Positions 15,378-58,212 of a DNA stretch of 64,000 nucleotides are shown here, one piece after another. Below the pieces are notes generated by a model. That model was not told the DNA's origin. It made no database searches and saw only the letters and a list, made by a program, of their open reading frames with translations. The stretch is from a virus. A program made the translations under genes and the position numbers. The stretch's first letter is position 1; each line of letters opens with the position of its first letter. The stretch spans positions 1 through 64,000 of IMG/VR virus record IMGVR_UViG_3300046779_001442, one strand, 5' to 3'.

Positions 15378-15767
15378 ATGGCATCACTTTATGAACCCTC
15401 AACCTTTGGCTCAGACCCAGCCATTATTAAGTGGCAGGTCGTCCGTGGCGACACAGCTGAGATTCGCATAGAATTTCTAGAACCAGATGAGACCACTTTT
15501 GTGGACACATCCTCATGGACCTATATCGCAAGTGCGTACGATCCAAGGCTTGATACTATTGATGAGCTAGACGTAACACCAGGAGAGGGCTTTGTTACTG
15601 TAACTGCAAGTGCTAATACCACAAAATTGTGGGGGACAGGCTATGGCTCAGTTATTGCAGAGCTACTTTTTGATCTTCAGGTTACAAGGGAAAATGGTAC
15701 AATATGGACACCAGTCCTTGGCAACATTGTGGTCCTAGGTGATGTTACATATGGAGGAAGTTTATGA
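15378..15767 (+). CDS. Virion structural protein (BppU-like Ig fold)
   Basis: VVRGDT...FDLQV...WTPV-x-G-x-I-x-V pattern, with paralogous motifs at 16468 and 20355. Confidence 0.6.
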   Translation: MASLYEPSTFGSDPAIIKWQVVRGDTAEIRIEFLEPDETTFVDTSSWTYIASAYDPRLDTIDELDVTPGEGFVTVTASANTTKLWGTGYGSVIAELLFDLQVTRENGTIWTPVLGNIVVLGDVTYGGSL

Positions 15768-16468
15768 CAACAATTAAGATTGTTCCTATGCCAGGAAGTC
15801 CAGGGGCACAAGGAGAGCGTGGAGAACGTGGACTACAAGGTGAGCCAGGTAGCAATGGAATGGCTGGAGCATCTGCATACCAAACAGCTATTGCACACGG
15901 ATTCAGTGGGTCAGAGTCACAATGGCTACAGTCATTGGTTGGTCCACAAGGAGCCAAAGGTGATAAAGGCGATGCAGGTGATACTGGTCTAACTGGTGCA
16001 TCTGCATACCAGTTAGCAGTTACAAATGGTTTTACTGGTTCTGAAGAGGAATGGCTAGCATCACTAAATGCAAGCCAAACATCTGGAACATATACCCCAG
16101 TACTTTCTGGAACTGGACTAATCGTTACAAACAATCAGGCAACTGGACACTACACAGTAATCAACAATATTGTTTTCTTTAGAGCAAACATTCCACTTAC
16201 GTATGTTTCAAATTTTGGAACTGGTGCATACAGTATTACACTACCATTTTCTCCTGCAGCAGATTTCATAGTTCGTGATGGAGTCATTAATGATGCTTCA
16301 ACATCAACAAAATACACACTTAGCGTACACGGAACATCTGGTAGCCCTATCGCTAGTCTAAAATATTCTGCAGGTAGCCAATTCTATGATATAGACTATA
16401 ACTCTCCTCTTGTTCTTGCAACAGGAGATACTTTTATACTTAGCGGAACATATGAGAGGCAGGCATAA
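15764..16468 (+). CDS. Collagen-like fibre protein
   Basis: Gly-X-Y triplets plus two SAYQ-x-A-x3-GF-x-G-x-E-x2-WL-x-SL repeats. Confidence 0.85.
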   Translation: MTTIKIVPMPGSPGAQGERGERGLQGEPGSNGMAGASAYQTAIAHGFSGSESQWLQSLVGPQGAKGDKGDAGDTGLTGASAYQLAVTNGFTGSEEEWLASLNASQTSGTYTPVLSGTGLIVTNNQATGHYTVINNIVFFRANIPLTYVSNFGTGAYSITLPFSPAADFIVRDGVINDASTSTKYTLSVHGTSGSPIASLKYSAGSQFYDIDYNSPLVLATGDTFILSGTYERQA

Positions 16469-17441: not shown

Positions 17442-17897
17442 ATGGCTGCACAAAATATAGACGGTACCACTGACGGAAGTGGTGTATTTAATACAAAGGT
17501 TCCAGGATATGAAGATCCTGCCGATATTCAGGCTGCCCTGAAGCTTTTCTTGTATGGCTCAACAACGTTCAACCCAGCAGCACCAGATGCAATAAATAAT
17601 TTGCCAAATCCATCTATTGCTAGATATATAAAGGTTATGCAGGATGAAATAAACGCACTTGAGGCAGCAGGTATTGGCTCTACATATGGTTCAGAACCAG
17701 TCTCCCCACAACTTGGATATCTATGGATGTCTTCAGCAGACTCTACACTAATTCCAACTGCTGCAGTGTCAATTTATCAATCAACAGAGCCAACAAATGG
17801 TTTGTCAAATGGACTTCTGTGGATAGACAATAGCGGATCTACACCAGTTCTTAAAGTTTATGATGGAACAACAGAGACATGGAGGGTAGTTGGCTAA
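17442..17897 (+). CDS. Putative tail fibre-associated protein
   Basis: P-x3-G-x-LW-x-D...LKVYDG-x3-W fibre motifs. Confidence 0.65.
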   Translation: MAAQNIDGTTDGSGVFNTKVPGYEDPADIQAALKLFLYGSTTFNPAAPDAINNLPNPSIARYIKVMQDEINALEAAGIGSTYGSEPVSPQLGYLWMSSADSTLIPTAAVSIYQSTEPTNGLSNGLLWIDNSGSTPVLKVYDGTTETWRVVG

Positions 17898-18544
17898 TGG
17901 CAAATATTAGTTCAGATGCAAAAGTTGCATATTTATTTGACGGAACAAATTGGAGACCAATTGCAGGTGCAGGAACTGTAAACCCATCTGCAGACTACCA
18001 GTGGACTGGAGACCATACATACTCATCCGAGTCAGTAGTAACATTTGAAACAGTTGTTAAGAATAAAGCAGGTATAAATAACTTTGCAAATCCAGCAGCT
18101 CGTGATCTAGCACTTTCATCTCCAGTAACTGGTCTTGTTGCATTTGTTGCACAGTCAGAAGATGGCTCAACAATTAATGACATACAATTTTATGATGGAA
18201 CAAGATGGCGTTCATCAAATGATTCAGCAATTCTTGTATCTCCTTCTATTGTTGCAAATGCATATACTCTTGTACCTGCAGATGCAGGAAATAGTTTGAA
18301 GATTACTGATACAACCGATACAACTATTTATATTCCAGAAAATGCTTCGAATTCATTCAAGATTGGCCAAAAGATTGAGGTTCTTAGATTAGGAACTGGA
18401 AATGTTTCTATAGCACCACTAACTGGTGCAGTAACCCTAAATAGTAAAAATGGAAATAGAAAGATCGCTTCTCAGTATTCTGGTGCAGTATTAACTAAGA
18501 TTGATACGAACTCTTGGCTACTCATCGGTGATTTGACGGCATAG
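17897..18544 (+). CDS. Putative tail fibre protein
   Basis: Its C-terminal domain (...QYSGAVLTK...W-x3-GDLTA) is paralogous to the C-terminus of 23459-25114. Confidence 0.7.
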   Translation: MANISSDAKVAYLFDGTNWRPIAGAGTVNPSADYQWTGDHTYSSESVVTFETVVKNKAGINNFANPAARDLALSSPVTGLVAFVAQSEDGSTINDIQFYDGTRWRSSNDSAILVSPSIVANAYTLVPADAGNSLKITDTTDTTIYIPENASNSFKIGQKIEVLRLGTGNVSIAPLTGAVTLNSKNGNRKIASQYSGAVLTKIDTNSWLLIGDLTA

Positions 18545-18552
18545 GTGGATAG

Positions 18553-19032
18553 ATGCTAGGTTCATTCGGTTTATGGGCATCTTCCAAGGGTATGAAAGTA
18601 GTTTCAAACCTTGTAGGACAGACTCGTGATGCAGCAAAATCTCAGATTGTGTCTGACGGCTTTATTGTAGGAACCGAAACACCACAGAACTTTACTAATT
18701 CATCTGATGAAGACAAACATGACAAGATTGTAGATCAAACACCAGATGCTGGAGTTTCTGCACAATACGAGTCTCCAGTAGATTTGGTTTATGGAGTCTT
18801 TAGCTTCTCTGTATTTGGAGTTTTTGGATTCTTTAGTGTGTTTAACTTCTTCAGCGTATTTAATTTCTTTAGCGTATTTAATTTCTTTAGTGTATTTGGC
18901 TTCTTTAGCGTGTTTAGCTTCTTTTCCGTATTCGGATTTGCCTTCTCAGTATTTAGCTTCTTCTCCGTATTTGGATTCTCGTTCTCAGTGTTTAACTTTA
19001 CGCCAACATTCTCAGTATTTGGATTTAGATAG
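18553..19032 (+). CDS. PASTA-like domain protein with Phe-rich FFSVF(G/N) repeat tail
   Basis: V-x-NLVG-x-T-x2-AA...GF-x-V...IVDQTP-x-AG...VDL is PASTA-like. About 75 C-terminal residues are F/S/V/G/N repeats ending FSVFGFR. Confidence 0.75.
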   Translation: MLGSFGLWASSKGMKVVSNLVGQTRDAAKSQIVSDGFIVGTETPQNFTNSSDEDKHDKIVDQTPDAGVSAQYESPVDLVYGVFSFSVFGVFGFFSVFNFFSVFNFFSVFNFFSVFGFFSVFSFFSVFGFAFSVFSFFSVFGFSFSVFNFTPTFSVFGFR

Positions 19033-19585
19033 CATCAATATATCTCACGTAAGAGATATCGCTATAGTTTCCACCAAATCGCTTTATGTCGTCAATTGCT
19101 GTTCTTTTTCCAGGGGCAGGAGAGTGAATCATCTTGCCATTTCCAATGTATATACCAACGTGGTACGCCTTTGAACTATTTTCATAATGGAATGCAACAA
19201 TGTCTCCAATAGCAGGTTCTGATACCTTATCTCCGCCAAGGGCCTGAGCAGTTGCTCTATGTTCTAAGCTAATGCCAAGTTGCTCATAGAACCACATGGT
19301 GAGGCCAGAGCAGTCCCATCCAGACGGAGTATGACCAGAAAATACATAGTATGTTTTGTTAACATATTTCTCTAGTTTAGATATTGCATTAGATATCTTT
19401 TTTGAATTTGCAGCTTTTTCAGCCTTCTTAATACTATCTGCTAAAAGCTTTTGTGCTTTTACAGAATCATATTCTGTTACGTATTCGTAACGAACTGGAT
19501 CTTCAGCTTTAGCTGGGGCTATAGAAGTTGTTAGTAAAAGTAATGTAGATGTGGCAAAGCCAGCAATTTTAATAGTTTTATTCAT
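19025..19585 (-). CDS. Secreted NlpC/P60 cell-wall peptidase
   Basis: Signal peptide (AKA site), YVFSG-x-TP-x-GWDCSG, GDIVAF, HVGIYIGNGKMIH. Confidence 0.95.
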   Translation of the reverse strand: MNKTIKIAGFATSTLLLLTTSIAPAKAEDPVRYEYVTEYDSVKAQKLLADSIKKAEKAANSKKISNAISKLEKYVNKTYYVFSGHTPSGWDCSGLTMWFYEQLGISLEHRATAQALGGDKVSEPAIGDIVAFHYENSSKAYHVGIYIGNGKMIHSPAPGKRTAIDDIKRFGGNYSDISYVRYIDAI

Positions 19586-23458: not shown

Positions 23459-25114
23459 ATGGCAACAAGAATGCAGCAACGTAGAGGTACAGCAGCACAA
23501 TGGACAGCTGCCAACCCAGTACTTTCAGCTGGTGAAATCGGTTATGAGACCGACACTAATAAGTTTAAGATTGGTGATGGAACCACTAGCTGGTCATCAC
23601 TTAAGTATTTTATGAACCTAGAAGACCTAGATCTTGATACTGAGGGCTTTATAAAGGACGACGAAAAAGGAGCTGCAAATGGTGTTGCCACACTTGACGG
23701 CTCAGCACAAATTCCAGTAAATCAGCTTGCTAACATTATTCAATCAGCTCCAAACACACTAGATACTCTAAACGAGATTGCTTCATCGATTACAGATACT
23801 AATGGTCTTGTCAAGACTGCTATTGCAGATGCAATTGAAACTGCGATGGCCGATGAAATTACTGCTAGAGATGCAGCGATTGCGGTAGAGGCTGCCTCAC
23901 GTCAAACTGCAATATCTGCAGAGGAAGATGCTCGTGATGCTGCTATTTCTACTGCTATTGCACCATTAACTACATCAATCAGTGATTTAACTAGTGATCT
24001 ATCAACTTTGAGCACAAATGTTACAAATCTCACAACAGCTGATGTTGCAGAAGATGCAGCAAATACTTACTTTACTGCAGAAAGAGCACAGGATGCAGTT
24101 GGATCAATTATTATTGGATCCGCTGGAATCGTTTCAGTATATGATGACGAAGCAGCAACAATTACAATTTCAGCAGATGCTACAATTGCAACTGCAACAG
24201 GTTTATCAACAGCAATTTCAGACCACAATTCTGACACAACAAATGTGCATGGTATTACTGACACAGCAGAGCTAGAGACACAAACAGGTGCCCAGGCAAA
24301 AGCAGATAATGCACAATCGGCTGCAGAGGATTATGCAGATGGTCTTGCTGTAAATTATGATGCTGCAGGTGCAGCAGCAGCTGCTCAGACAGCAGCAGAA
24401 GCTACAGCAGCTTCCCTATATGCTACTAAGGTAAACGCTGCAATTACTGGAAGTGCTACAGCAGAAAACCTTACAATTACTGGAGACCTAGTTGTCCAGG
24501 GTACAACGACAACAGTTGCTGCAACTAACCTTGAGGTTACAGACTCCTTAATTTATCTTGCTGCAGAGCAGTTTGATACAGACACTCTTGACATAGGTAT
24601 TTTTGGTGCATATGGAGATGTGCAAACAGGACACTTCCACACAGGTATCTTGCGTGACGCAACTGACGGAAAGTGGAAGCTAGTTTCAAATGCTCCAGAG
24701 CCAACAGATAGTCACGTAGACTTTACTAATGCTAACTATGATACACTAAAGCTTGGCGGAGTTGAGTTTGCAGATGGCATTCAAACAAAGCAGGGAGTTC
24801 CATCAATAACACCAATCTCTCAAAAGACAGCATCATACACACTTTCAGACCTATCTGAGCGTGATTCTCTTATTGAAGTTGGATCTTCTTCTGCAACTAC
24901 ACTTACAATCCCTTCAGATTCAGCAGTAGACTACCCAGTAGGCACTACTCTTGATATTCTTCAGACATCAACAGGTCAAGTAACAATTGCTGGAGATACT
25001 GGTGTTACAGTAAATGCAACACCTGGACTCAAGTTGCGTACACAATGGTCTTCAGCTACTCTGATGAAGAGAGCAGCAAACACATGGGTTGTCTACGGCG
25101 ACCTTACAGCTTAA
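23459..25114 (+). CDS. Tail fibre with major-tropism-determinant-type N-terminal domain
   Basis: MQQRRGTAAQWTAANPVLSAGEIGYETDTNKFKIGDG-x3-W-x2-L-x-Y, plus LDTLNEIA. Confidence 0.85.
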   Translation: MATRMQQRRGTAAQWTAANPVLSAGEIGYETDTNKFKIGDGTTSWSSLKYFMNLEDLDLDTEGFIKDDEKGAANGVATLDGSAQIPVNQLANIIQSAPNTLDTLNEIASSITDTNGLVKTAIADAIETAMADEITARDAAIAVEAASRQTAISAEEDARDAAISTAIAPLTTSISDLTSDLSTLSTNVTNLTTADVAEDAANTYFTAERAQDAVGSIIIGSAGIVSVYDDEAATITISADATIATATGLSTAISDHNSDTTNVHGITDTAELETQTGAQAKADNAQSAAEDYADGLAVNYDAAGAAAAAQTAAEATAASLYATKVNAAITGSATAENLTITGDLVVQGTTTTVAATNLEVTDSLIYLAAEQFDTDTLDIGIFGAYGDVQTGHFHTGILRDATDGKWKLVSNAPEPTDSHVDFTNANYDTLKLGGVEFADGIQTKQGVPSITPISQKTASYTLSDLSERDSLIEVGSSSATTLTIPSDSAVDYPVGTTLDILQTSTGQVTIAGDTGVTVNATPGLKLRTQWSSATLMKRAANTWVVYGDLTA

Positions 25115-25134: not shown

Positions 25135-25962
25135 ATGGCAGCAGGTAAAAGAGCAGGTAGACACTCTCAGCAGTCAAATGACTTTTTAGAGCCACATGCA
25201 CCAGTTAACGTAGGTGCAACAGATGTTGGAACTAACAGAGCATACAATGACGGTGCTGCCACAGTAACTTTTGAGTTGCCTGCTAACTCACCAGCTGCAA
25301 CATCGTATACAGTAACAGCAACACCTACCGCAGGTGGCTCTTCAATGACTGCATCTGGATCTTCTTCTCCAATCACAGTATCTGGACTTGCGTCTGACAC
25401 TGGATATTCAATTTCTGTGACTGCATCTAACGCTTCTGGATCTTCAGCTGCATCATCTTCAGTTTCTATTACTGCAACAACCGTTCCAGCTGCACCTACT
25501 AGTGTCAGTGCGTCATCTCCAAGCGGTGCATCATATGATACAGTATCTTGGTCTGCACCAGCCAATGGTGGCAAAGCAATTACTAATTATTACATCACTT
25601 CTGATGATGGAAAGTCTGGAAATACATCTGGAACATCTATAGATATTAGCCAAGAGCAAGGAACTTCTCAAACATATACGGTATATGCTGATAACGCAAA
25701 TGGTAGATCTGCTGCCTCAGCAGCATCTAACCAGGTTTCAACATTTTCCTTTGTGCCATTCTCAGTATTTGGCTTCTTCTCAGTATTTGGATTCTTCTCA
25801 GTATTTGGGTTCTTCTCAGTATTTGGATTCTTCTCAGTATTTGGATTTGTTCCTTTTAGCGTATTTAGCTTCTTTGGAGTATTTGGATTTGGACCATTTG
25901 GAGTGTTCGGATTTATTCCATTTGGAGTTTTCGGATTCTTCGGGGTATTTGGGTTTAGATAA
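25135..25962 (+). CDS. Tandem fibronectin type III protein with Phe-rich FFSVFG repeat tail
   Basis: Two FN3 repeats (SYTVTA...V-x-GL-x4-Y-x3-V-x-A-x-N; VSWSAP-x-NGG-x2-ITNY...Y-x-V-x-A-x-N-x2-G-x-S), then about 70 aa of F/S/V/G/P repeats ending FGVFGFR. Confidence 0.85.
   Translation: MAAGKRAGRHSQQSNDFLEPHAPVNVGATDVGTNRAYNDGAATVTFELPANSPAATSYTVTATPTAGGSSMTASGSSSPITVSGLASDTGYSISVTASNASGSSAASSSVSITATTVPAAPTSVSASSPSGASYDTVSWSAPANGGKAITNYYITSDDGKSGNTSGTSIDISQEQGTSQTYTVYADNANGRSAASAASNQVSTFSFVPFSVFGFFSVFGFFSVFGFFSVFGFFSVFGFVPFSVFSFFGVFGFGPFGVFGFIPFGVFGFFGVFGFR
25756..25848 (+). repeat. 18-bp tandem repeat TTCTTCTCAGTATTTGGN
   Basis: About five near-identical copies encoding FFSVFG. Confidence 0.85.
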
Positions 25963-26013
25963 AAAACAGCTCCTATAGTGTATAATAGTTTTATACATAG
26001 AACGGAGTATGAG

Positions 26014-26673
26014 ATGTATAAAGATCAAACACCTCTGAGAAGCATTAGCAAGACCACTCAGGGACATAAATTCTTTGAACGCTATCTAGATAATGACCTT
26101 GCAAAGCTAACAGAAGAGCTTCAGGCTAGATACGAACTTATTGAACAGGCAAAACTTCCAGGTGTAACACCAGTAAGCCCATTTGAGGCATGGAAAGACT
26201 CTAACAGTATCTCAACAATGAAGTGGAGACAGTATAACGTTTTCCAGTTCCATATCGATGGTATTTATGAATTATATAAAGCCGTTGGAGATATGGTAAG
26301 AGAGGCATGCGAACATTACGAGCTTGACTTTGATGAACAAAAGTTTATGATTCAGGGATGGTTTAATATTAACCACTCTGGCAATGGAAAACTTAATTGG
26401 CATGAGCACGGTGGCCCAGGTGCACCAGATTTTCATGGGTACTATTCTGTAGCTGCAGAACCATCGTCTACACACTATATCGTGTTCGATGACGAGGTAG
26501 AAAATGTTAATAAGAATAATCGTGCCATCTTGTCTGAAATGGGACATCCACATGCAATGGGTGATTGGGACTGGGATGGTCCAAGAATTACAGTAGCATA
26601 TGATGTTACACCTTTAGAGTACCTAAAGCGTGGAGGATCTGCAGTAGAGCAGCACTGGATTCCACTTAGATGA
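26014..26673 (+). CDS. Putative Fe(II)/2OG oxygenase, TIGR02466-like (paralog 1)
   Basis: GWFNIN...WHEH...FHGYY...GHPHA...PRITVAYD: double-stranded beta-helix pattern with HxH...H and a distal Arg. Confidence 0.7.
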   Translation: MYKDQTPLRSISKTTQGHKFFERYLDNDLAKLTEELQARYELIEQAKLPGVTPVSPFEAWKDSNSISTMKWRQYNVFQFHIDGIYELYKAVGDMVREACEHYELDFDEQKFMIQGWFNINHSGNGKLNWHEHGGPGAPDFHGYYSVAAEPSSTHYIVFDDEVENVNKNNRAILSEMGHPHAMGDWDWDGPRITVAYDVTPLEYLKRGGSAVEQHWIPLR

Positions 26674-27338
26674 TTGCAATGACTAAGCCACCGCACAAGT
26701 TCTTTGATCGTTATTTAGATAATGATTTGGAAAGCCTGACACAGTATCTTCTAGAAAAGAGAAAGTGGATATATGAAAACGGCATTGGTGCACCAGAAGA
26801 TGTTTTTAAGGAAAAGCGTGAACGTGGCGATAGCCTAGTTACAATGCTTGGAGACTATTATAATATCTTTACATGGGACAATCCAGCTATTAAAGAGCTC
26901 TACGATGGCTTAGTCATCACAACAAAAGAAGCATGCGATTACTATGGAATAGACTTTGACAAAGCTGATTACCATATTTGCGGATGGTTTAATGTAAATG
27001 AAAATGGTACAGTTTACTCTGGAGAGTCTCCTTTAGATCATCCAGAATGGTTTCACGATCACATGCATGGCATAGGGGCTCCAGTATTTCATGGATACTA
27101 CTGTGTGAACGCAGAGCCTTCATCCACCTACTATCATATAAATAAAGATAGAAACAATTTGTTTGAAAATGTCAATAAAAACAATAGGCTTGTAGTTTCA
27201 GAAACTGGTCATCCACACGCAATTGACAATTGGTCTTGGGATGGTCCAAGAATTACTATTGCCTATGACATTAGTCCAAAGAACAAGGATTTTATTAATC
27301 ATGATTTTGTTGGAAGCCATTGGATAAAGTTGGGATAG
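26670..27338 (+). CDS. Putative Fe(II)/2OG oxygenase (paralog 2)
   Basis: GWFNVN...FHDH...FHGYY...GHPHA...PRITIAYD. Confidence 0.7.
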   Translation: MIAMTKPPHKFFDRYLDNDLESLTQYLLEKRKWIYENGIGAPEDVFKEKRERGDSLVTMLGDYYNIFTWDNPAIKELYDGLVITTKEACDYYGIDFDKADYHICGWFNVNENGTVYSGESPLDHPEWFHDHMHGIGAPVFHGYYCVNAEPSSTYYHINKDRNNLFENVNKNNRLVVSETGHPHAIDNWSWDGPRITIAYDISPKNKDFINHDFVGSHWIKLG

Positions 27339-27339
27339 T

Positions 27340-27987
27340 ATGAAGGATCATAAATTTTTTATTCGTGACATAGATAATGACATAGAGTCACTCTTGTCGT
27401 GGACTTTAGATTTGAATGAAAGACTAGTCTCTGGAAATCTAGTAGAGCTAGACAAATCCATGCTTGATGCATACAAGGATAGTTCATCTGGAGCAGGTAC
27501 CGCCTTTCTTTCACACTACAATATTTTTGAGATGGGCAACCCACAAATTGAAAAGCTAAAAAATGCAATCCATGATGCCCTAAAAGAGGCATGTATCTAT
27601 TATGAAATAGATTATGATGCTGAAGATTGGTACCTACACGGCTGGTTCAACAAAAATGCTAAAGAAGATATGTGGGATGTCTCTCCTATTGATAATCAAG
27701 ATAAGTGGCACGAACACATGAATGGTGTTGGAGCACCAGTGTTTCACGGATACTACTGTGTAAATGCAGAACCTTCTGTAACCGTGTATCAAGTATTTAA
27801 AAATCCAGAAAATATAAAAGTAAATGTAAATAAAAATAATCGTTTAGTTGTTTCAGAAGTTGGTCATCCTCATGGCATGGGAAACTGGAGAGTTGATGGT
27901 CCAAGAGTAACCATTGCTTATGATATTGCACCAAGAGCCTATATTAGCGACGAGGATGCACAAGCATGGACAAGGCTTGAAAAATGA
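27340..27987 (+). CDS. Putative Fe(II)/2OG oxygenase (paralog 3)
   Basis: GWFNKN...WHEH...FHGYY...GHPHG...PRVTIAYD. Confidence 0.7.
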   Translation: MKDHKFFIRDIDNDIESLLSWTLDLNERLVSGNLVELDKSMLDAYKDSSSGAGTAFLSHYNIFEMGNPQIEKLKNAIHDALKEACIYYEIDYDAEDWYLHGWFNKNAKEDMWDVSPIDNQDKWHEHMNGVGAPVFHGYYCVNAEPSVTVYQVFKNPENIKVNVNKNNRLVVSEVGHPHGMGNWRVDGPRVTIAYDIAPRAYISDEDAQAWTRLEK

Positions 27988-28142
27988 AAAACTGGATATT
28001 AAGAATAAAATGTTTTATATCTGGTCATAAGGTTATTAAGGGTAACGCCTGTCCAGTAACTGGTATGGTTAGATTAGACTGTATAACTTGTGGTGGATCA
28101 AATATGCCAAAACATGTAGATAAGGTTGGAATGTTTCAATGA
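27984..28142 (+). CDS. Small Cys/His protein (52 aa)
   Basis: MKNWILRIKCFISGHK...CPVTG...CITCG; ATGA overlaps with both neighbours. Confidence 0.65.
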   Translation: MKNWILRIKCFISGHKVIKGNACPVTGMVRLDCITCGGSNMPKHVDKVGMFQ

Positions 28143-28666
28143 GTAAGACGGATGATATTAAGTATATTAAGGGCTTCATGCCAGCTGATATAGCTAAAGC
28201 AATTTACGAGTATTCTGTAAAAAATGATGAATTTTTTGATGAATTTGGCAATGGAGAAAAAGAGTTTAGGGTTAATGTGTTTAAAAAGTCTGATGAAGAA
28301 ACACTGGCCATGAAAAATCTAGTAACAGAGTGGGGCAAAAAAGTGTATGACTTTGTGCTAGACACATATGGTCCAAGGTTCTACGAATATGATGAGACAA
28401 AATCACATATTGCAAGATTTGAACCAGGCTGGGGTATGCATGAGCATTTTGATGCTAGCAAGCCAAACGATATAGCAACATTAATATATATAAATAATGA
28501 TTATATTGGTGGAGATATCTATTTCCCAGAATATGGAATTTCTCACAAGCCAGAGCCAGGAGACCTCTTAACTTTTCCAGACAATCCAGATTACGTGCAT
28601 GGGGTAAGAGCAATATCTGATGGAATTCGTTATACAACTCCACGCTGGTTTACACGTATAGTATGA
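28139..28666 (+). CDS. Prolyl-4-hydroxylase-like Fe(II)/2OG oxygenase
   Basis: H-F-D...LIYINNDYIGGDIYFP...P-x-PGDLLTFP...HGV...G-x-RYT. Confidence 0.9.
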   Translation: MSKTDDIKYIKGFMPADIAKAIYEYSVKNDEFFDEFGNGEKEFRVNVFKKSDEETLAMKNLVTEWGKKVYDFVLDTYGPRFYEYDETKSHIARFEPGWGMHEHFDASKPNDIATLIYINNDYIGGDIYFPEYGISHKPEPGDLLTFPDNPDYVHGVRAISDGIRYTTPRWFTRIV

Positions 28667-28681
28667 TAAAATATATATACA

Positions 28682-31600
28682 ATGACAGCCTCACTCAGCC
28701 TATACTCATCCAAAATCATCAAGGAACACCCCCTTGGTCTTTGGCCACTGCAAGACAAATGTGACTACCTGTCCATACTTAATTCTTCTCAGAGGGATTT
28801 AACTTCTTGGAGCTTAGATGGTGGACAGATGTCATATACATCTACACTAACAACCCCAATTCCAGAAGAGCCAGTTTACAGAATTGACTCAGCACATGTT
28901 GGTGCCTCTAACGTAAGAATGGTAAGGCTGAATAGCGAGGTTATTGGAAACTTTTCGTCTATAAACGAGTATCTAGCTACATTTACGCTATCAACCTTTT
29001 TATACTCTTCTACCGACAGCATTCTCTCTGCAACTATTGGGTTTGCATATACTGATCCAACCTATGGCGAGTATCGTGTATTTAAACGTTTTCCGCTGTC
29101 AGTTGCAGGTAAATGGGTATTCTTATCAGAAACATTTGATAGACCATATGACATTAATTCTGAATACTATCTTTTTATAGAAATTGAGTTTCTATCTAAT
29201 AAGACCACAGATCCAGTGCTATTTTTGCTAAATGGACTTTCTCTTGGCCAATGGACAGAAGAGTTTAACTCATCATCTTCGGGTGTTGTTCCAGAGACCG
29301 TAGTTGGCTCTATATATGGATTGCCAGATAATTCTAAGGCAGTAAAACTTCTTGCATCAGCAGAAGCCACTAAAGATGGATATGCAATTGTCGCAGACAA
29401 TCAACTAAAGGCAAGAAATTCTGGTATGCCGATGGTATATGGGTCAGACTCTTCGATGACAATATATCCAAATGGATCTAGTCCATCTATAGTTATACCT
29501 GGCTTGGGTTTTATGAATAGAGTTGGTCAGTACAAGAACTACACTATCGAGGCATGGATCAAGATAAGCCCATCTGGATACTCTGAGTCAAAGATATTTG
29601 GACCAGTCGCATCTTCTGATGGAATATATGTTGATGGACCATTCTTAAAGCTTAAGGTGGGGGATTATTCAATTTCACACTATGTCTCTGAATGGTATAG
29701 ACCAATGTTGGTGCACATATCGATATCATCAGACAGAATTGTTATGCTTTTGAATGGTGAGCAGGTAGGTCAGATATTGGTAAATAGATCAGATCTTGTT
29801 TTTCCAGAAGAAGTGCTAAATGGAAAAGAGCAAGACTGGCTGGGATTCTATTCTAATGACTCAATCGATATATTTGAAATTGGACCAGTGTCAATATACA
29901 CATATGTTATCTCAAATGCTATTGCTAAGAGAAGATGGATATTTGGGCAAGGGGTAGACAATCCAGAAACTTTAAATGTTGCATATGGTGGAAAGAACAT
30001 ATATTTTGACTACCAATTTGCCAAATATTCATCAAACTATTCTTATCCAAAAATTGGTTCATGGTCTAGCGGAATATCTAACAACTTGTCAAGCGATACG
30101 GACTACTTAAAGATTCCAAGCTTTAAGAGTATGGAGCTGGTGGTCCCCGAACAAACACAGTCAGAGTTTTTAAAAAATAGTAAGAGTATCCAAAACGAAG
30201 ATTCAAAATTTATATCTTTGCCAAATAATGCATATGGATATTTTGAAAATCTAAATATTTTAAAAGACGGCGTAGAGTCTATTTATGTAACTTTTAAGTC
30301 TATATCTGCACCAACAGAACTAAGGCAGACCCTCATAGAGCTAAGAGATAAAACAACTGGAGACTACTTATCAGTGTCGTTGTCTGGTTCTGGCATTGAG
30401 TACAAGCTAAGGTATCTTGGACAAACCGAAGTTCTTGGAACAACTCAGCAATACTATCCAGGAGAAAAATTTTCTATAGGTCTTCACATAAAAAGATTTG
30501 CAAGTTATTTTGGAAATGCTGCAGCAACATTTTTAAGTAAAAAAGATTCTTTGGCACTCTATGTTGGCGGTACTGGTTCTTCAGACTCTTTTATTGGAAA
30601 CATATATTCTATATCTTTTAACAATCAGTTTGCTACCAAGAAAATAGAGGATTATTTTGCTCCAAATGGAATTGTGTGGGATGCAGAGCTGGTTGAGTCA
30701 ATGCTTGCAGATGCGGATGCTGGACTATATAGTACAACATTTTGGGAATTTGTTCTGGATGGTGGACAGGTTGCAGAATATGCAGGCATAGGTCTTATCG
30801 ATAATGCAAACACTAGCTATACCATAAAACCATACGAAAATAGTTCTACTATGTATCTAGATGGAGTAATGAATGGTTCTTGGAAGTCTGCCCTACCACT
30901 TTCATATTTCGGAAAAAATGTAACTAACTCAAAGGGTATCCAGTACTACGATCTTGATTTTATACAGTTTAATATTGGATATCCATCACCTGGAAGATCG
31001 ATTGCTGTTACAGAAACCGATGCTTCGTGGAGCTATCAAGACTTAGCACTTAAATTTTCTTCCCCATCTCAGAAAAAGTATAGTGACCTAGATAACCATC
31101 TATATACTGGATATATTGATTACACTGATTTAAAGAATAATTCTAGACAAACATATAAACTAGATACTTCGGGGTCAATTGTAAAAAGCTATATATATTT
31201 TAAAGATATCTCGCAAGATGTTGAGGACGATTCATACTACACAAATATTGCGATGGCACCAAAAGATGGAATGTTAAGTCCAGGAGAAGAATGGATAAAC
31301 ACCAAGTATGAGATTGTAGATGGAATGATAATCTATCCACCTACCAATGTTAGTTTTGCACAAACTGTGATGGTTACAGAGATAGTTGTATCAGCGGAGC
31401 ATATATCTGATAAGCCTTTGGCAATCAGCACACTAGAGCTTTCGTCAATTGCACTTAATGATGAAACTCCAACGCCAATTGGAACTAGATACGGAACTGA
31501 CATCTATCCCTTTACAGAAAATGGCTTTTATTATGACTATAAGTCTCCAAATCCATTTTCAATATATAAAGGCAGCACACCATACCTATATTTGACTAAA

Positions 31601-32335
31601 AATAGTGGTATAAGGCTAAAGGGTGCATTTAATAATAAAAATGTTCGAGGCATAGACATCCCAGTAAATAGTGAAAAGACAAATAATCATAAAATGATTG
31701 CTATGCAAATGTTTGCAATGTATGATGATGACTTTTTCCCATATAGTCCGACAGAAATTTTTGAGATAATATCAAATACCTCACACCTAAAATTCTATAT
31801 TGAGGCAACACACCCAGACGGACTAAGAGGTAAAATATATGCTATCAATGACAAAACTGGTCAGCTTGAAAATGGTGTTGGATATTACATTAATGGCAAA
31901 GTTGTTAAAGACCCAGTGCTGACAATAAAGCAATGGGCATCATTAGGTATAGGTTTTTCTAACTACCTAGATTTTTCTAATAATGGTGGATCAATTAGAA
32001 TAACAGGTCCAATGCTTATTAATAATATATCTCACTATAACTCTGTAAGATTGCAGCAAGTTCAAAATATCTCTGTTAGACCATGGTTCCTAGTAAAAGA
32101 GTCTGGAAGAGTCAAATTTGATTGGCGATATTGGGACGGAATATTCAAGTGGTTCGAAGTGCTCGTGCTTTCGTCTAGAAATTTCTACGGTATTGACCCA
32201 TCCGATATATACAAGTCATACGTTGGAACTACCAGAATAATTATTGATGACAAGTCAATATTAAGGCTATTAAGGTCAAAGTATAGGGCAATAACAAACT
32301 CTAATAGGCAAACTACAACTATTAATGCTGTTTAA
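28682..32335 (+). CDS. Large virion protein with LamG/concanavalin-like domain
   Basis: 1217 aa; N-terminal HPLGLWPL and a YTIEAWI...W...H...LNGEQV LamG-like segment. Confidence 0.65.
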   Translation: MTASLSLYSSKIIKEHPLGLWPLQDKCDYLSILNSSQRDLTSWSLDGGQMSYTSTLTTPIPEEPVYRIDSAHVGASNVRMVRLNSEVIGNFSSINEYLATFTLSTFLYSSTDSILSATIGFAYTDPTYGEYRVFKRFPLSVAGKWVFLSETFDRPYDINSEYYLFIEIEFLSNKTTDPVLFLLNGLSLGQWTEEFNSSSSGVVPETVVGSIYGLPDNSKAVKLLASAEATKDGYAIVADNQLKARNSGMPMVYGSDSSMTIYPNGSSPSIVIPGLGFMNRVGQYKNYTIEAWIKISPSGYSESKIFGPVASSDGIYVDGPFLKLKVGDYSISHYVSEWYRPMLVHISISSDRIVMLLNGEQVGQILVNRSDLVFPEEVLNGKEQDWLGFYSNDSIDIFEIGPVSIYTYVISNAIAKRRWIFGQGVDNPETLNVAYGGKNIYFDYQFAKYSSNYSYPKIGSWSSGISNNLSSDTDYLKIPSFKSMELVVPEQTQSEFLKNSKSIQNEDSKFISLPNNAYGYFENLNILKDGVESIYVTFKSISAPTELRQTLIELRDKTTGDYLSVSLSGSGIEYKLRYLGQTEVLGTTQQYYPGEKFSIGLHIKRFASYFGNAAATFLSKKDSLALYVGGTGSSDSFIGNIYSISFNNQFATKKIEDYFAPNGIVWDAELVESMLADADAGLYSTTFWEFVLDGGQVAEYAGIGLIDNANTSYTIKPYENSSTMYLDGVMNGSWKSALPLSYFGKNVTNSKGIQYYDLDFIQFNIGYPSPGRSIAVTETDASWSYQDLALKFSSPSQKKYSDLDNHLYTGYIDYTDLKNNSRQTYKLDTSGSIVKSYIYFKDISQDVEDDSYYTNIAMAPKDGMLSPGEEWINTKYEIVDGMIIYPPTNVSFAQTVMVTEIVVSAEHISDKPLAISTLELSSIALNDETPTPIGTRYGTDIYPFTENGFYYDYKSPNPFSIYKGSTPYLYLTKNSGIRLKGAFNNKNVRGIDIPVNSEKTNNHKMIAMQMFAMYDDDFFPYSPTEIFEIISNTSHLKFYIEATHPDGLRGKIYAINDKTGQLENGVGYYINGKVVKDPVLTIKQWASLGIGFSNYLDFSNNGGSIRITGPMLINNISHYNSVRLQQVQNISVRPWFLVKESGRVKFDWRYWDGIFKWFEVLVLSSRNFYGIDPSDIYKSYVGTTRIIIDDKSILRLLRSKYRAITNSNRQTTTINAV

Positions 32336-47800: not shown

Positions 47801-48951
47801 AAGAAATTGCTTGGCAAGAAGATGAAGTTAACAAGAAGTATGATGCTAGAGGTAAGGCTCTAGATAAGATTCAAAAGGTTAATGAGAATATTGCTAGACA
47901 AAATAAGGCTCAGTTAACTATTGCGGATGCTCTTAGCCAGGGAGATATCGCTGCTGCTGCACGTGCAATAGAAGATGCAAGAGCAGAAGATGCAGCTGCA
48001 GCAATTGATGCACAAAAGCAGGCACTTGATACAGCAAAAGAGCAGGAGCTTGCTTCCCTTACAGACTCTCAGGGCAGAACACGTGCTCAGCTTGAGGCAT
48101 CAATTCTTGACCTTAAAAAGCAAATTTTTACAATTGAAGAGCAAACACTTGAGCCAGCTCAAAAGGCAAAATCCGAAGCAGAGGCAATTAAGCAAGCTGC
48201 TATCGATAGCATAACTGTTCTTGGCAAGAACAAGGATGAGTGGGAGGCAATTAAAAATAAAGCTGATATTGCTCGTGTTAATTCAGATAAATATGCTAAG
48301 GCTATACAAGGTGCCCTTGATATTGTCAATGATCTTGTTAAAAAATGGGGTGGCCTAGATGGCAAGGTTGTAACAACCACACATGTTATCAACACAATAA
48401 CAAATGGTTCGAGTACTGGATCTACAGGAAGTTCTACCACAACTACAAAACCTATTACAACTACAAAGCCTACCACATCTACAATTACTCCTGCACAAGG
48501 ACAAGCACTTGTAGCAAGACTTACGGGCGGTGCTCCAGTTTCATCATTCAGTGCTGCTGAAAGAGCATATCTTAACCTTAACTCTGGTGGTTCAGTGCCA
48601 GGAATAGGTGACTATGACAAGGTTCCTTCAATGCTAACACCTGGAGAATTTGTTATGAACAGATCAGCCGTTGGTAAGTATGGCGTTGGCATGATGAGGG
48701 CCATTAACGCTGGAAGTTTTGTACCTTCTATGTCAGCACCAACAGTCTCTATGCCAGCTACAGATGGTGGCAACGCCCCAGAAGTATCAAATTCTGGAGT
48801 ATCTGCTACAAATAACAACTCAGCAGTGTATAATTATAATCTAAGCGTTAATGTGTCTTCATCTAATGCAGGTGCACAAGAAATTGCAAATGCAGTAATG
48901 GGAAGAATTAAAGCTGTCAATTCACAGCGAGTAAGAGGAGTTAGAATTTAA
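41857..48951 (+). CDS. Tape measure protein
   Basis: 2364 aa, Ala-rich and helical, with a TP901-type core (GGINASEGANALKS), TM segments and GG-x-V-x-G...D-x-(I/V)P-x2-L-x2-GE motifs. Confidence 0.93.
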   Translation: MADIQSNIQVNIDTSSALASIKALQAQISAFQKEMASSSAANALAAKNLQKGLIDDINATGKFAASIKTVTSTTDYFTRSLEKNKLSLGEYFRYGMASSKSFSRMFESEFNTINKVARERVKDLQTQYISLGKDASGATKAIAIRPLALDLEHVGTKAQIAAQRTQLFNQILKQGSTNLLNFGKNTQWAGRQLMVGFTIPLSIFGAKAAQEFKKLEEQSIRFKRVYGDAMTTPEEADKMIEQLRTLGLEFTKYGVALEATMQLAADAAAMGKTGQDLLGQVSQANILGVLGQVSQEQALETTISLTNAFGYSTEQLADKVNFLNAVENQTVVSIEDLTTAIPKAGPVVQQLGGDVEDLAFFLTAMKEGGINASEGANALKSGLASLINPTEKASNMLLGMGINIKNIVAENNNDVAGIVVDFAQALDSLDPTTRAQAIEQLFGKFQFSRLSTLFQNVIQEGTQASRVLELTNMTTAQLAAMSRKELRNVEESSLYKFQAAIERFNAALAPVGEQFMKMVTPLIEFGTRILNMFNNMSDGAKGFVTAIVGIVGGIAPIFIMTFGLIANAIANGMKGFLFIKNAIQGAKQETTDLGLQTQYMSTEQLEAATVAASLDQVHSKLVQTFTSEAGAIDKLRTALERAAVAQARFGGVRVAGNAPKPKNFANGGMVVAGPGGPKGDKIPANLSDGEVVLSVATVEENPAVVQALLSGQKVQIPGYAESGTAGKSAIREFYAPTGNTYQAAHFSGHTEMSGAQLQEMAAGTRLAAGVEKLFANLMARLEKEALEAGAVFDKAAAELRILNETFDLYDNRVVSLDAELNNILGRSGGESGGTAPVARVQSALQSAGTDAHMQAALTMSTQGATREQQNAAIEQLDAAVQQSMQDFIDDQVKLATGVSDVSDLTKQEYEEAIANIKMSGEDLDRVIQRAYEAVSEKNDQLKAAYEEMSEISGYALAGDLNPNKDKSRNRKGFTGTGTKLYTDTRGQAYENMSQINADQGRDNKFVETQKRKFARVLEDAISQIVEVDPEAFTQVLQNPDAQARLRELSAIAEKYGIKLTQTAMAELQRGFEVGLQKQLDIQSPSKEAEVRGAQTGEGYLDGAESKIDDAKAVGEQTGDALTRAAASRAATYGDLEATPALKSARRKFGSVENIPPEVLSTLTSGMTSAGVEAEKAAINIGAVANKAMAVSGALSSVSFLLQGFGINLGGIGDVVTTLTNSMFALSMATAAAARSTMVMSALNLSGLANIGGLLKGKGLLDGFKTIFSSIRTFGGALTGLSGIVFRFIPYIGLALLAFEGFKFLSNQIQISNEKITGLGDVAKLTAEKLSKIGNAFGFDPAKPTDFGSRIGTSDSTSGSSKSQTGREKLLSGYEGETIEDKFSKFKDDYRAEINGLENATAEQATRALSSTARQMYASGATQEAVDATIKALIEATENNPELQKVDAGKIIGTVFDPTKPGSLQAIQDAAAASAEAYQKAYNLGLATDFGSSVDPESWMAGTYDPSKVTQQQLDAAGVKGNTVTPLSSDATKEQSILASETAASADALFQAFEASSIGAQELIDNVNGLIAPIEGLSETAQARLVPILAEQLGPEFQEQTKDIKDYADVLYMAKYVMAGGVITDEQVNKIKKGTSATSLLSGSFGQLAFETENARKAEERRQEAADNAAYVKQQIVNVSDQIKAYNILRDAGYDSATALSLVNDETLRSEILAAGAADKLGEFGVKLKEYAGLVAQWNKISSSGGGGSGKKTPLQEALESLKEQRGNILNAATAYSKLRKANIDVSTSWKYANDATVAAGLASAKTAKQVKQIVAAIKELEKATAKNAWGNFSKQTADAKIALQNQSKMATILGNVGASAEEIDALINDEGLAAGFKAGTVTAAQLEEALKRIRANSDIELKIKMTTPEGMQSIFDEAYGKVQEAFSAKETQIELDFKLGTNLSGQNKDLVNTKAIDETIKNAEEQIDGLNYKIDDYEAGVQEIAWQEDEVNKKYDARGKALDKIQKVNENIARQNKAQLTIADALSQGDIAAAARAIEDARAEDAAAAIDAQKQALDTAKEQELASLTDSQGRTRAQLEASILDLKKQIFTIEEQTLEPAQKAKSEAEAIKQAAIDSITVLGKNKDEWEAIKNKADIARVNSDKYAKAIQGALDIVNDLVKKWGGLDGKVVTTTHVINTITNGSSTGSTGSSTTTTKPITTTKPTTSTITPAQGQALVARLTGGAPVSSFSAAERAYLNLNSGGSVPGIGDYDKVPSMLTPGEFVMNRSAVGKYGVGMMRAINAGSFVPSMSAPTVSMPATDGGNAPEVSNSGVSATNNNSAVYNYNLSVNVSSSNAGAQEIANAVMGRIKAVNSQRVRGVRI

Positions 48952-49589
48952 TGGCTACACAAACATATATGGATGGACGCAAGAAGTATTCTCGTCCACA
49001 TGCTATGATGTGGTCAAAGCAGGCCCCACTTATTATTAATGGAAAATATGTTCCATATGGTCTCGAAGTTAACGACTATGTAGAGTCACAAGTTGATGCA
49101 GTGCTACAGGATCAGTTCTTAATTTTGTCTGACGATAACAGAGAGCCACTAGCCTTTAAAACAGATAGAATTCAGACGAGAAAGCGTATGGTTAACGGAC
49201 AGATGCGTTCATACCATATTGCTGATAAATTAAATATTTCTACATCTTGGAGCATGCTGCCATCTCGTGGATTTGCTACATACCCAAATTTTGATACTGC
49301 AACTGGAGAACCAAACCAGGCACTAATTAGTTCTCAGATGATAACTACTGATGGCGGTGCAGGTGGCGTTGATATGTTGCAATGGTATGAAAATAATCAA
49401 GGTTCTTTTTGGGTTTACCTTTCATACGATAAGTACAATGAATTTGCTGAAGATCAGTTTAGATTTGAAAGACTTGGAGAATATCCGCAGGCACTTGAAA
49501 TGTATATCGCATCTTTCGACTATGACGTTGTAAAGCGTGGCGGTAGTCATGACCTGTGGAACATATCAATTTCTCTAGAAGAGGTATAA
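48951..49589 (+). CDS. Putative distal tail protein
   Basis: Immediately after the tape measure gene; ends W-x-ISISLEEV. Confidence 0.6.
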   Translation: MATQTYMDGRKKYSRPHAMMWSKQAPLIINGKYVPYGLEVNDYVESQVDAVLQDQFLILSDDNREPLAFKTDRIQTRKRMVNGQMRSYHIADKLNISTSWSMLPSRGFATYPNFDTATGEPNQALISSQMITTDGGAGGVDMLQWYENNQGSFWVYLSYDKYNEFAEDQFRFERLGEYPQALEMYIASFDYDVVKRGGSHDLWNISISLEEV

Positions 49590-53848: not shown

Positions 53849-54855
53849 TGGCAGAAAAACCAAAGGCATCACCAAAAGCTTTATTGCCAACACTTAAACC
53901 AGTTACAACTGGCGTACCAAAGTCTTTGCAAAAGCCAGCTCTGACCTTACAGCAACAGTCTGATAGATCTAGAACAGCATCACGAGCTGCATTTCAAGCT
54001 TCTCCAGCAAAGAAAGAAAGAAATAAAGCAACTCAAAGCGTAATAGCTGCAAATAAAAAAGTTGATCAACTAAAAGCTTCTGCTAATGCTCCAGGGCTAA
54101 CTGCTCAGCAAAAATCAGATAGGATGCGTACTCTTGGTAGGGCACAAAATCAACAGTCAAAAGCAAAGGCTAACCTTAACAAAATAACTGGATATAAGAA
54201 ACCAGTAAAAAAGAGTGATCCAGTCAACACCAAGCCAACAAAGCCAAAAACTACAAAACCAAAGACTACAAAACCAAAGACCACAAAACCAAAAACTACT
54301 AAACCACAAACTGGTAACAATTCTACACTGCCACAAACTACGTCCCCAGTTGATGCTACGGAAAATCCTGTAGTTTCTGCTACCCCAGAGTCTCCATCTC
54401 CAGGAGTTACTTCAGAAGCAGAAAGTGTAAAGACCTATAAGCCTGCTACTCCAGATTTGATTCAGTTACAGGAAGACGAATTTCCAGTAGAGATTATTAC
54501 AGACTTGTTGTTTGAGGATATTGGCGGTACAGAAATTTTAAATTTAGCAAGGCATGACCTTGTGAGTGGTATAGATATAAAATATCAGCAAATATCAAAT
54601 CTTTCCAAGATTGAGGCTGTGTATGGTGGAGCAAACTTGGTTGCACTACAAAACACATCTGAACAAGTGTTTAGTAAATATCCACTCAGAAGATATCAAT
54701 TTATACCAACAGTCACAGATGATCCATCTGGACTAAATAGCCATGTCTACCTTGATGCTGCTGGAGACTTGGTGATAGAGCTAATCAACATAGACAACTC
54801 ATACCAAATAGAGGTAGAGTTCCAGGCAGCAGACATTAATGATATAATATATTGA
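53848..54855 (+). CDS. Putative tail protein with Lys-rich low-complexity N-terminus
   Basis: KPKTT repeats followed by a globular-looking C-terminus (LLFEDIGG-x-E). Confidence 0.7.
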   Translation: MAEKPKASPKALLPTLKPVTTGVPKSLQKPALTLQQQSDRSRTASRAAFQASPAKKERNKATQSVIAANKKVDQLKASANAPGLTAQQKSDRMRTLGRAQNQQSKAKANLNKITGYKKPVKKSDPVNTKPTKPKTTKPKTTKPKTTKPKTTKPQTGNNSTLPQTTSPVDATENPVVSATPESPSPGVTSEAESVKTYKPATPDLIQLQEDEFPVEIITDLLFEDIGGTEILNLARHDLVSGIDIKYQQISNLSKIEAVYGGANLVALQNTSEQVFSKYPLRRYQFIPTVTDDPSGLNSHVYLDAAGDLVIELINIDNSYQIEVEFQAADINDIIY

Positions 54856-57904: not shown

Positions 57905-58212
57905 TGGCAGAACGCAAAGACCGTATGGCTTTGCTTAGTCGCTACTCAAAGCTTTACACTCAAAAATACGAGCAGAAGCCACAGATCAACATAAACGTTG
58001 AGCAATGGGCTGCAGACGCTTTAATTGAATCATATGGCATATCAGAATGCTATGATCTTCTGGCACACTATTTTGATGTTGCACAGAATCCAAGTTGGAA
58101 ATACTTTGCCAACTACGCACAAGATATAATTGATAAAAAAGCACAACTACAAGAAGATATTAAAGAAAGGGCAAAGAGAAGAGAGATGGCAAAGAGGTGG
58201 CTAAGTGAGTAA
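57904..58212 (+). CDS. Hypothetical protein
   Basis: 102 aa, coupled to the helicase gene. Confidence 0.7.
   Translation: MAERKDRMALLSRYSKLYTQKYEQKPQININVEQWAADALIESYGISECYDLLAHYFDVAQNPSWKYFANYAQDIIDKKAQLQEDIKERAKRREMAKRWLSE

Follow-up and report, generated by a model that had tools for sequence, protein, structure and literature searches.

The structural module of an uncultured lake phage holds a gene for a protein with a phenylalanine-rich repeat tail, followed by a run of genes for oxygenases of the 2-oxoglutarate (2OG)-Fe(II) type. We found that across related phages the type of enzyme follows the type of repeat rather than the genomic backbone, at a coarse level. We tentatively take the tail to be the substrate of the adjoining oxygenases, a plausible candidate and the best one available. 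The phage is represented by a 110.9-kb virus record (IMG/VR IMGVR_UViG_3300046779_001442), and the window analysed here is its first 64 kb (positions 1 to 64,000). The region studied is a late, structural-module cassette of this siphovirus-like phage of about 111 kb, and it consists of the following features (P4H stands for prolyl 4-hydroxylase):

25135..25962, + strand: FN3-tail protein, 275 residues, with a conserved N-terminal peptide, two FN3 domains and the Phe-rich tail
25741..25959, + strand: Phe-rich low-complexity tail, residues 203-275 of that protein (73 residues, 32 of them Phe)
25759..25847, + strand: 18-nt tandem DNA repeat encoding FFSVFG units (Tandem Repeats Finder: 4.9 copies, 95% matches)
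26014..26673, + strand: oxygenase-like paralogue A, 219 residues from ATG 26014 (the open reading frame, ORF, opens at GTG 25978); 45% identical to B; invariant HxH, H and R
26670..27338, + strand: oxygenase-like paralogue B, 222 residues; predicted double-stranded beta-helix fold; H129-D-H131, H141, H181/H183, R194
27340..27987, + strand: oxygenase-like paralogue C, 215 residues; 47% identical to B
27984..28142, + strand: 52-residue Cys/His protein, its start overlapping the stop of paralogue C; no family match
28139..28666, + strand: P4H-like 2OG-Fe(II) oxygenase, 175 residues; H103-F-D105, H154 and R164, the canonical HxD...H

A sequence-only reading of the same DNA had pointed to these genes, and the FN3-tail gene and the five genes downstream of it are indeed all present on the + strand. 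It had also called the four enzymes 2OG oxygenases, which agrees with the fold of the three paralogues and with the Pfam match and motif of the P4H-like enzyme.

About 60 related contigs share a conserved block made up of the FN3-tail gene, two to four paralogues and none to two P4H-like genes. We sampled 80 loci through the paralogues, and their gene order is fibre genes, FN3-tail gene, two to four paralogues, the 52-residue gene (sometimes), none to two P4H-like genes, a gene for a protein of 1217 residues, and portal. Because these loci are related and were picked by enzyme, this order says little alone. A second sample of viral contigs was drawn by tail DNA pattern only, blind to the enzymes. 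It covers FN3-type tail proteins and comprises 64 distinct ones with at least 5 kb of downstream sequence. Two classes of locus in this sample are compared here:

Tail Pro fraction of at least 0.25 (PPFF type), 22 loci: paralogue in 0/22, mean 0; mean number of P4H-like genes 5.3-5.8
Tail Pro fraction of 0.08-0.25 (FSPFG/FTPFG type), 40 loci: paralogue in 38/40, mean 1.5-1.8; mean number of P4H-like genes 1.2-1.3

In the same sample the Spearman correlation of the Pro fraction is -0.64 with the number of paralogues and +0.76 with the number of P4H-like genes. A tree of the upstream fibre proteins has 7 changes of tail class on well-supported branches, and the presence of a paralogue flips with tail class in about 6.5 of the 7 independent pairs (sign test, p 0.016-0.03). 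Since the fibre genes themselves recombine, we also built a tree of the portal proteins. In the latter, four PPFF genomes form one clade with 100/100 support. A further genome (G012) falls in the other portal clade together with twelve FSPFG-type genomes, yet it encodes three PPFF-tailed proteins, and in the same slot it has seven P4H-like genes and no paralogue. Enzyme type thus follows repeat type rather than backbone at the coarse level. The expectation that repeat type would track the enzyme set holds to this extent, that is, for the loci sampled by tail DNA, the seven contrasts and G012, but it fails when fine repeat variants are set against copy number.

Two further comparisons were set aside. 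The number of paralogues in relation to tail length or Pro content in the paralogue-selected loci was dropped, because kinship confounds it and some proteins with a Hint domain are misclassified when the tail is delimited. A scan for the FFSVF DNA pattern went unused, since its matches, in T-rich DNA, were for the most part single ones due to chance. The 1217-residue gene was reached in only one PPFF locus, which is too few for a tree.

The FN3-tail protein matches Pfam fn3 in two stretches (E 2.4e-11), and its AlphaFold2 model has two confident all-beta FN3 domains with the beta-sandwich fold (residues 21-200, predicted local distance difference test score, pLDDT, > 90). The tail has five FFSVFG units, continues with units of the FxPFxVFG type and ends in FGVFGFR; the FFSVFG repeat and this ending had been read from the sequence. 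Its pLDDT is about 40 and it has no secondary structure in the model; since AlphaFold2 gave it no confident structure, we do not read it as a beta-helix or solenoid. Homologues of the protein occur in more than 60 loci, and the aromatic repeat is kept in the same frame in more than 60 of them despite differing unit sequence and period, so that the tail frame is neither a chance nor a wrong one.

The three paralogues are 45-47% identical to one another, and each has the motifs H[DE]H, FHGYY, GHPH and PR[IV]T. The databases contain 948 or more relatives of them, all without a name and without a Pfam domain, and at 50% identity the family falls into 269 clusters. Throughout the family W/F-H-x-H, H-G and E-P-S-x-T-x-Y are conserved, as are a single distal His and the Arg of P-R-I-T. 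We modelled paralogue B with AlphaFold2 (pLDDT 90.5). The best VIA structure match of this model is the uncharacterised 2rg4 (Z 15.4, root-mean-square deviation 3.9 over 179 residues), which Foldseek also finds (E 1e-5). It is followed at Z 9-12.4 by over 40 2OG oxygenases of solved structure, which cover residues ~6-222 of B and include prolyl hydroxylases, phytanoyl-CoA-type enzymes, AlkB and TET; the Foldseek probabilities are 0.98-1.00. With such a jelly-roll core in the model of B, the paralogues are predicted to fold as double-stranded beta-helices of the 2OG-Fe(II) oxygenase type.

The canonical HxD/E...H triad is absent from the paralogues, which conserve HxH...H and an Arg and have no conserved acid at the canonical position. 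The residue between the two His is D or E in the clade of the window, but not so across the wider family. The invariant Arg of PRIT lies 11-13 residues after GHPH, and by its spacing and strand it may be the residue that binds the C5-carboxylate of 2OG. In the protein Atlas, the nearest named clusters are viral and carry PF13759. We were not able to find a match to the hidden Markov model (HMM) of PF13759 for A, B, C or 32 aligned members of the family at E values up to 10. We take 2rg4 to be a member of PF13759 (2OG-FeII_Oxy_5) as well; the match names the fold and not the reaction, because PF13759 is likewise of unknown function. In searches of Pfam, PHROGs and NCBIfam the paralogues drew nothing useful, just phrog_2696 (unknown function) for A, and profile searches of the PDB with two paralogue alignments (A1 and A3) gave chance matches alone. 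An isolate phage database contained no DNA relative, and the sole protein relatives of the paralogues in it are S-CAM1 proteins at 24% identity.

The three paralogues, the 52-residue protein and the P4H-like enzyme are encoded in a translationally coupled run. The sequence-only reading had the ORFs overlapping or abutting, which is borne out by 4-nt overlaps at 26670, 27984 and 28139 and a 1-nt gap at 27339. It also had the enzymes directly after the FN3 gene. The two do adjoin, but for paralogue A the ATG at 26014, which has a GGAG 6 nt before it, is a likelier start than the GTG at 25978, and this leaves a gap of 51 nt (25963-26013) behind the FN3 stop codon. Besides the GGAG, the gap contains TGTATAAT, an extended -10-like sequence, and so the enzyme run may have a promoter of its own. 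A scan for promoters and terminators found fewer sites than in shuffled sequence and is uninformative.

The 52-residue protein is encoded in about half of the related loci, and C10, H15, C23, C33, C36 and H44 are conserved in 20 homologues. The 175-residue enzyme belongs to the P4H-like family PF13640 (2OG-FeII_Oxy_3) by its HMM score, its HxD...H motif and its distal Arg; the score is borderline (27.2 bits against a cut-off of 27, E 8e-6). Its best PDB match by sequence is prolyl 3-hydroxylase 1 (P3H1, E 1e-4), and Bacillus P4H follows at E 0.07. The genome has four P4H-like genes in total, the three beyond the window being recognised by their match to the 175-residue protein. Two of these further copies score 37.9 and 43.6 bits against Pfam, and the copy at 88063 has no match. 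Two P4H-like genes are each directly followed by a gene of PF11397 ('GlcNAc', glycosyltransferase family GT60), at 88063/88674 and 105332/105996. By analogy, these pairs appear to follow a hydroxylate-then-glycosylate logic. Also outside the window are a third GT60 gene, a GT8 gene and two DUF6065-like genes:

88063-89637, 89628-90542 (-), 105332-106934, 108882-109694 (-), 110167-110754 (-): extra P4H-like, glycosyltransferase and DUF6065-like genes of the same genome, beyond the window

The tail is not confined to the FN3 protein. A second tail-bearing protein is encoded 6 kb upstream of the FN3-tail gene:

18553..19032, + strand: protein with a PASTA domain (Pfam PASTA, E 4.4e-6) and an 80-residue FFSVF(G/N) tail ending in FSVFGFR

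Its homologues include P0125, P0127 and others. The two tails of the window are low in Pro, with 4 residues in one and 1 in the other. When the tail alone was used as the query, every match was an FN3 or PASTA protein from the same group of phages. Among the relatives the units are FSPFGVFG, FSPFG, FTPFG, FTPYS (in the complete relative G001) and PPFF, the tail is about 25 to more than 120 residues long, and the period of the unit varies (5, 6 or 8 residues) with the aromatic spacing retained. A protein of 868 residues in one relative (L083:1344-3950), near two paralogues, has three Laminin_G_3 domains (E 3e-43) and an FTPFG/FTPFA tail. This LamG-type protein is a third kind of tail carrier beside the FN3 and PASTA proteins. 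Within one genome, tails on non-adjacent genes have repeat type and terminus in common; we see this in the window (PASTA and FN3 proteins), in the contig of locus L007 and in the three PPFF proteins of G012 (loci L634-L638). The genes of the latter lie at 48396-51151 and 58015-58728 (-); two are tandem FN3-PPFF genes whose proteins have Cys-rich ends, and in the third protein the PPFF repeat is internal, between FN3-like domains.

In roughly half of the FN3-repeat homologues, a domain of about 165 residues directly follows the repeat (L010, L043, L058, L019, L027 and about 20 other loci). We aligned 22 of its sequences (alignment A2). Their profile matches inteins and related domains in the PDB at E values from 9e-8 to 1e-4 (Pho RadA intein, E 9e-8; BIL domain, E 9e-5), and Pfam assigns Intein_splicing to 14/22 and Hint_2 to 6/22 of the members, so that the domain of the relatives belongs to the Hint/intein-like group; the FN3-tail protein of the window is without it. 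In most of the sequences listed the repeat is followed at once by Cys or Ser, and most of the domains end in ...HNK or a similar H-N motif. These features suggest self-cleavage or transfer at the C-terminus of the tail. Because no extein follows the domain, only N-terminal cleavage or transfer is conceivable.

A different arrangement is seen in G001 (the contig of L078). At 100692-104111 it encodes an FN3 homologue with about 35 units of the FTPYS (Phe/Tyr) type and a Cys-rich end, and there is a like gene at L091:2692-6111. The genes after the tail gene of G001 encode a DUF6171 Zn-ribbon protein, a Sulfotransfer_2-like protein (22.8 bits against a cut-off of 22) and ribonucleotide reductase. 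From their sequences, these neighbours hint at a different tailoring chemistry, possibly sulfation.

Around the cassette, the structural module in the window is siphovirus-like, with portal, protease, major head protein and tape measure. The host is probably an actinobacterium, since the phage encodes a WhiB-family protein (96311-96487, +, outside the window; 45.7 bits, above the cut-off). The neighbouring genes that bear on the cassette are:

28682..32335, + strand: conserved protein of 1217 residues, which bounds the variable enzyme slot and is followed by a 127-residue gene and then portal
23459..25114, + strand: fibre protein directly 5' of the FN3-tail gene (matches to Pfam Mtd_N and tail-fibre PHROGs)
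17879..18544, + strand: fibre-like protein directly 5' of the PASTA-tail gene, the first gene of a duplicated two-gene cassette

The two fibre proteins have a common C-terminal domain ending in GDLTA (31% identity over 141 residues, E 7e-14), and for this reason we consider the unit of fibre gene and tail gene to be duplicated. Convergent with the PASTA-tail gene is a gene for an NlpC/P60 peptidase (19025-19585, -; Pfam, E 6e-21) with a signal-peptide-like N-terminus.

Two other proteins of the window contain Pro repeats. The collagen-like protein of the fibre region (15764-16468, +; Pfam Collagen, E 6e-6, slightly below the cut-off) has short G-X-Y runs including M-P-G, S-P-G and E-P-G, and judged by these it would be a P4H substrate of the classical kind in the same module. 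The tail-module protein at 53848-54855 (+) holds a Lys/Pro/Thr repeat, (KPKTT)5, and is another possible target of a proline hydroxylase. The antisense frame of the latter gene reads as VVFGF repeats, which makes a spurious Phe-rich ORF (54150-54320).

Our explanation for the cassette, with the tail as substrate, is that the enzymes would oxidise, most simply hydroxylate, residues of the aromatic tail during production of the virion protein. On a fibre accessory protein with a sticky tail, the modification would adjust how soluble, cohesive or adhesive that tail is. The few x-Pro-Phe sites of the tail might be taken by the P4H-like enzyme, and a non-proline position by the HxH paralogues. A more far-reaching version seems to us unlikely. 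In it, the HxH...H enzymes would represent a new class of oxygenases that modify proteins, here at a non-proline position of disordered aromatic tails on fibre accessory proteins of the virion, with the P4H arrays and PPFF tails as a proline-directed sister system; the chemistry of the HxH...H enzymes could be oxidative cross-linking, or hydroxylation of Phe (on the ring or the beta-carbon), Ser, Val or Asn. Repeat and tailoring enzymes would then form matched cassettes, in some of which the Hint domain may cleave or transfer the modified tail, giving an adhesive or cross-linked appendage. The system had earlier been called similar to those that make ribosomally synthesised and post-translationally modified peptides. 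We could not uphold this: there is no leader, the slot is without a recognition element, releasing protease or exporter, and the repeat forms the C-terminus of a folded protein.

Several observations weigh against the tail as substrate. In the portal tree only one change of tail class is forced by well-supported branches, and a tree of the FN3 domains was too poorly resolved for counting independent switches. Moreover, a single recombination event can move both repeat and enzymes, because the tail-coding 3' end adjoins the enzyme genes. In G001 one paralogue and three P4H-like genes lie 55 kb from the tail gene, beside a CHAP lysin, and another relative (L476) has no oxygenase in the slot. The distance in G001 argues against a strict coupling of tail and enzymes. 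Furthermore, two loci have just one P4H-like gene (L411, L501), two lack the P4H-like gene in the slot (L069, L074), and in a more distant branch of the family we found no aromatic-repeat ORF within 10 kb in 80 loci. Although the tails of the window are poor in Pro, the genome carries a total of four P4H-like genes, two in pairs with GT60 genes far from the tail, and it encodes the other Pro-repeat proteins described above (15764-16468 and 53848-54855). Finally, the number of paralogues is 1 to 4, varies within every tail type and does not follow the fine repeat variants, which also speaks against the idea that the three paralogues serve the variants SVFG, SVFN and PFGV.

These points make room for linkage without a substrate relation, an explanation that we find doubtful but take seriously. 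The slot from the fibre genes to the 1217-residue gene would be a hot spot for accessory genes, and the Phe tail would serve as a sticky or assembly module without being modified. Among the relatives the slot spans 2.1-8.2 kb from the FN3 gene to the 1217-residue gene, and its contents vary as well (ribonucleotide reductase, a sulfotransferase-like gene, genes without assignment). The distance in G001 and the P4H-like/GT60 pairs at 88063/88674 and 105332/105996 fit this explanation too. The enzymes would then have other substrates, such as the collagen-like fibre protein with its X-Pro-Gly sites (15764-16468), the (KPKTT)5 protein (53848-54855), FN3 linkers (then glycosylated by GT60) or host EF-Tu or ribosomal proteins; a bacterial P4H bound to EF-Tu (4iw3) is among the structural neighbours of paralogue B. 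Left unexplained by linkage alone are the paralogue flips with tail class in 6-7 contrasts and the case of G012, and likewise the occurrence of one tail type on non-adjacent genes, unless gene conversion and cassette exchange explain both.

The enzymes might also act on small molecules or nucleic acids, in auxiliary metabolism, in the tailoring of secondary metabolites or in base modification. Roles in secondary metabolism have been proposed for phage dioxygenase arrays (Iyer et al. 2010, PMC2938197), many of the structural neighbours of paralogue B are small-molecule oxygenases (ThoJ, AviO1, EvdO2, PHYHD1, AlkB, TET), and the nearest solved structure, 2rg4, is without a known substrate. However, family scans of the slot genes found no nonribosomal peptide synthetase, polyketide synthase, halogenase or transporter, the enzyme genes are embedded among virion genes in the same orientation, the 175-residue enzyme matches peptidyl-prolyl hydroxylases best by sequence, and the enzyme set tracks the tail type. 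We therefore judge such substrates to be improbable indeed. That the tail is a DNA repeat made by slippage and read in an arbitrary frame, as the 95% identity of the 18-nt copies and the openness of the region in other frames might suggest, is hardly credible, given that the Phe-rich frame continues that of the FN3 domains, persists in more than 60 homologues whose units (FFSVFG, FSPFGVFG, FTPFG, FTPYS, PPFF) and periods differ, occurs on PASTA and LamG-type proteins too, and runs in frame into the Hint domain in many homologues.

Phage genomes from lakes and oceans are rich in 2OG-Fe(II) oxygenases whose substrates have been unassigned since they were catalogued; the array of phage Syn9 was described in 2010 (PMC2938197). 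The cassette supplies a concrete candidate substrate, which is accessible by peptide synthesis, and a natural matrix of specificities as well, with HxH-type enzymes going with Phe/Gly/Ser tails and P4H arrays with Pro-Phe tails. The window holds the Pro-poor, HxH-enzyme version of the tail/oxygenase cassette, and PPFF tails with P4H genes are the other version. Searches of the literature found no title or abstract on Phe-rich phage tails or on this cassette, nor on the function of the paralogue family. If the tail is the substrate, phages chemically tailor their own virion appendages, a family lacking a Pfam model gains a function, and a new low-complexity aromatic module is defined, with FN3, PASTA and LamG-type proteins as its carriers and a Hint domain as an occasional cap. 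If it is not, the tail remains an undescribed, widespread phage protein module.

Among known systems, the closest are that of the chlorovirus PBCV-1 and the phage arrays and operons of Iyer et al. 2010 (PMC2938197). In PBCV-1, a virus-encoded 2OG-Fe(II) hydroxylase of the collagen-P4H type (vCPH, 5c5t) likewise occurs together with viral repeat proteins; these Pro-rich proteins are the presumed substrates of vCPH. The structure 5c5t is a neighbour of paralogue B (Z 10.9), and the 175-residue enzyme is of the same Pfam type. In contrast to PBCV-1, the dominant enzymes here are of the HxH...H kind without a Pfam match, the repeat is made of Phe, Ser, Val and Gly with almost no Pro, and the host is bacterial. 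In Skp1 of Dictyostelium and Toxoplasma, a proline is hydroxylated by the prolyl hydroxylase PhyA and the hydroxyproline is glycosylated by Gnt1, a member of GT60. The two P4H-like/GT60 pairs of this genome parallel that order; unlike in the Skp1 system, they lie 60-80 kb from the cassette, whose operon is without a glycosyltransferase gene.

The tail itself resembles the FG repeats of nucleoporins, with dense F-G and F-x-F-G units and no predicted structure, but it is far more hydrophobic, is without hydrophilic spacers and belongs to a virion context. The domain after the repeat in the relatives is like the Hint domains of Hedgehog and of bacterial intein-like proteins, except that it has no extein, and the protein of the window has no such domain. 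Paralogue B comes nearest to PF13759 and the uncharacterised structures 2rg4 / 3bvc, with 2rg4 as the best structural match, yet there is no HMM match to that family. The Synechococcus phage Syn9 carries, as here, several different 2OG dioxygenases in tandem, for which secondary metabolism was proposed and no protein substrate named (PMC2938197). The aromatic repeat tail, FN3 and Hint are not described in that paper (Iyer et al. 2010). The same work reports hydroxylase-sulfotransferase operons with collagen-like or tail-collar proteins and predicts, for structural repeat proteins encoded alongside the enzymes, hydroxylation followed by further modification (PMC2938197); G001, with a sulfotransferase-like gene near its (FTPYS)n tail, is alike in this respect.

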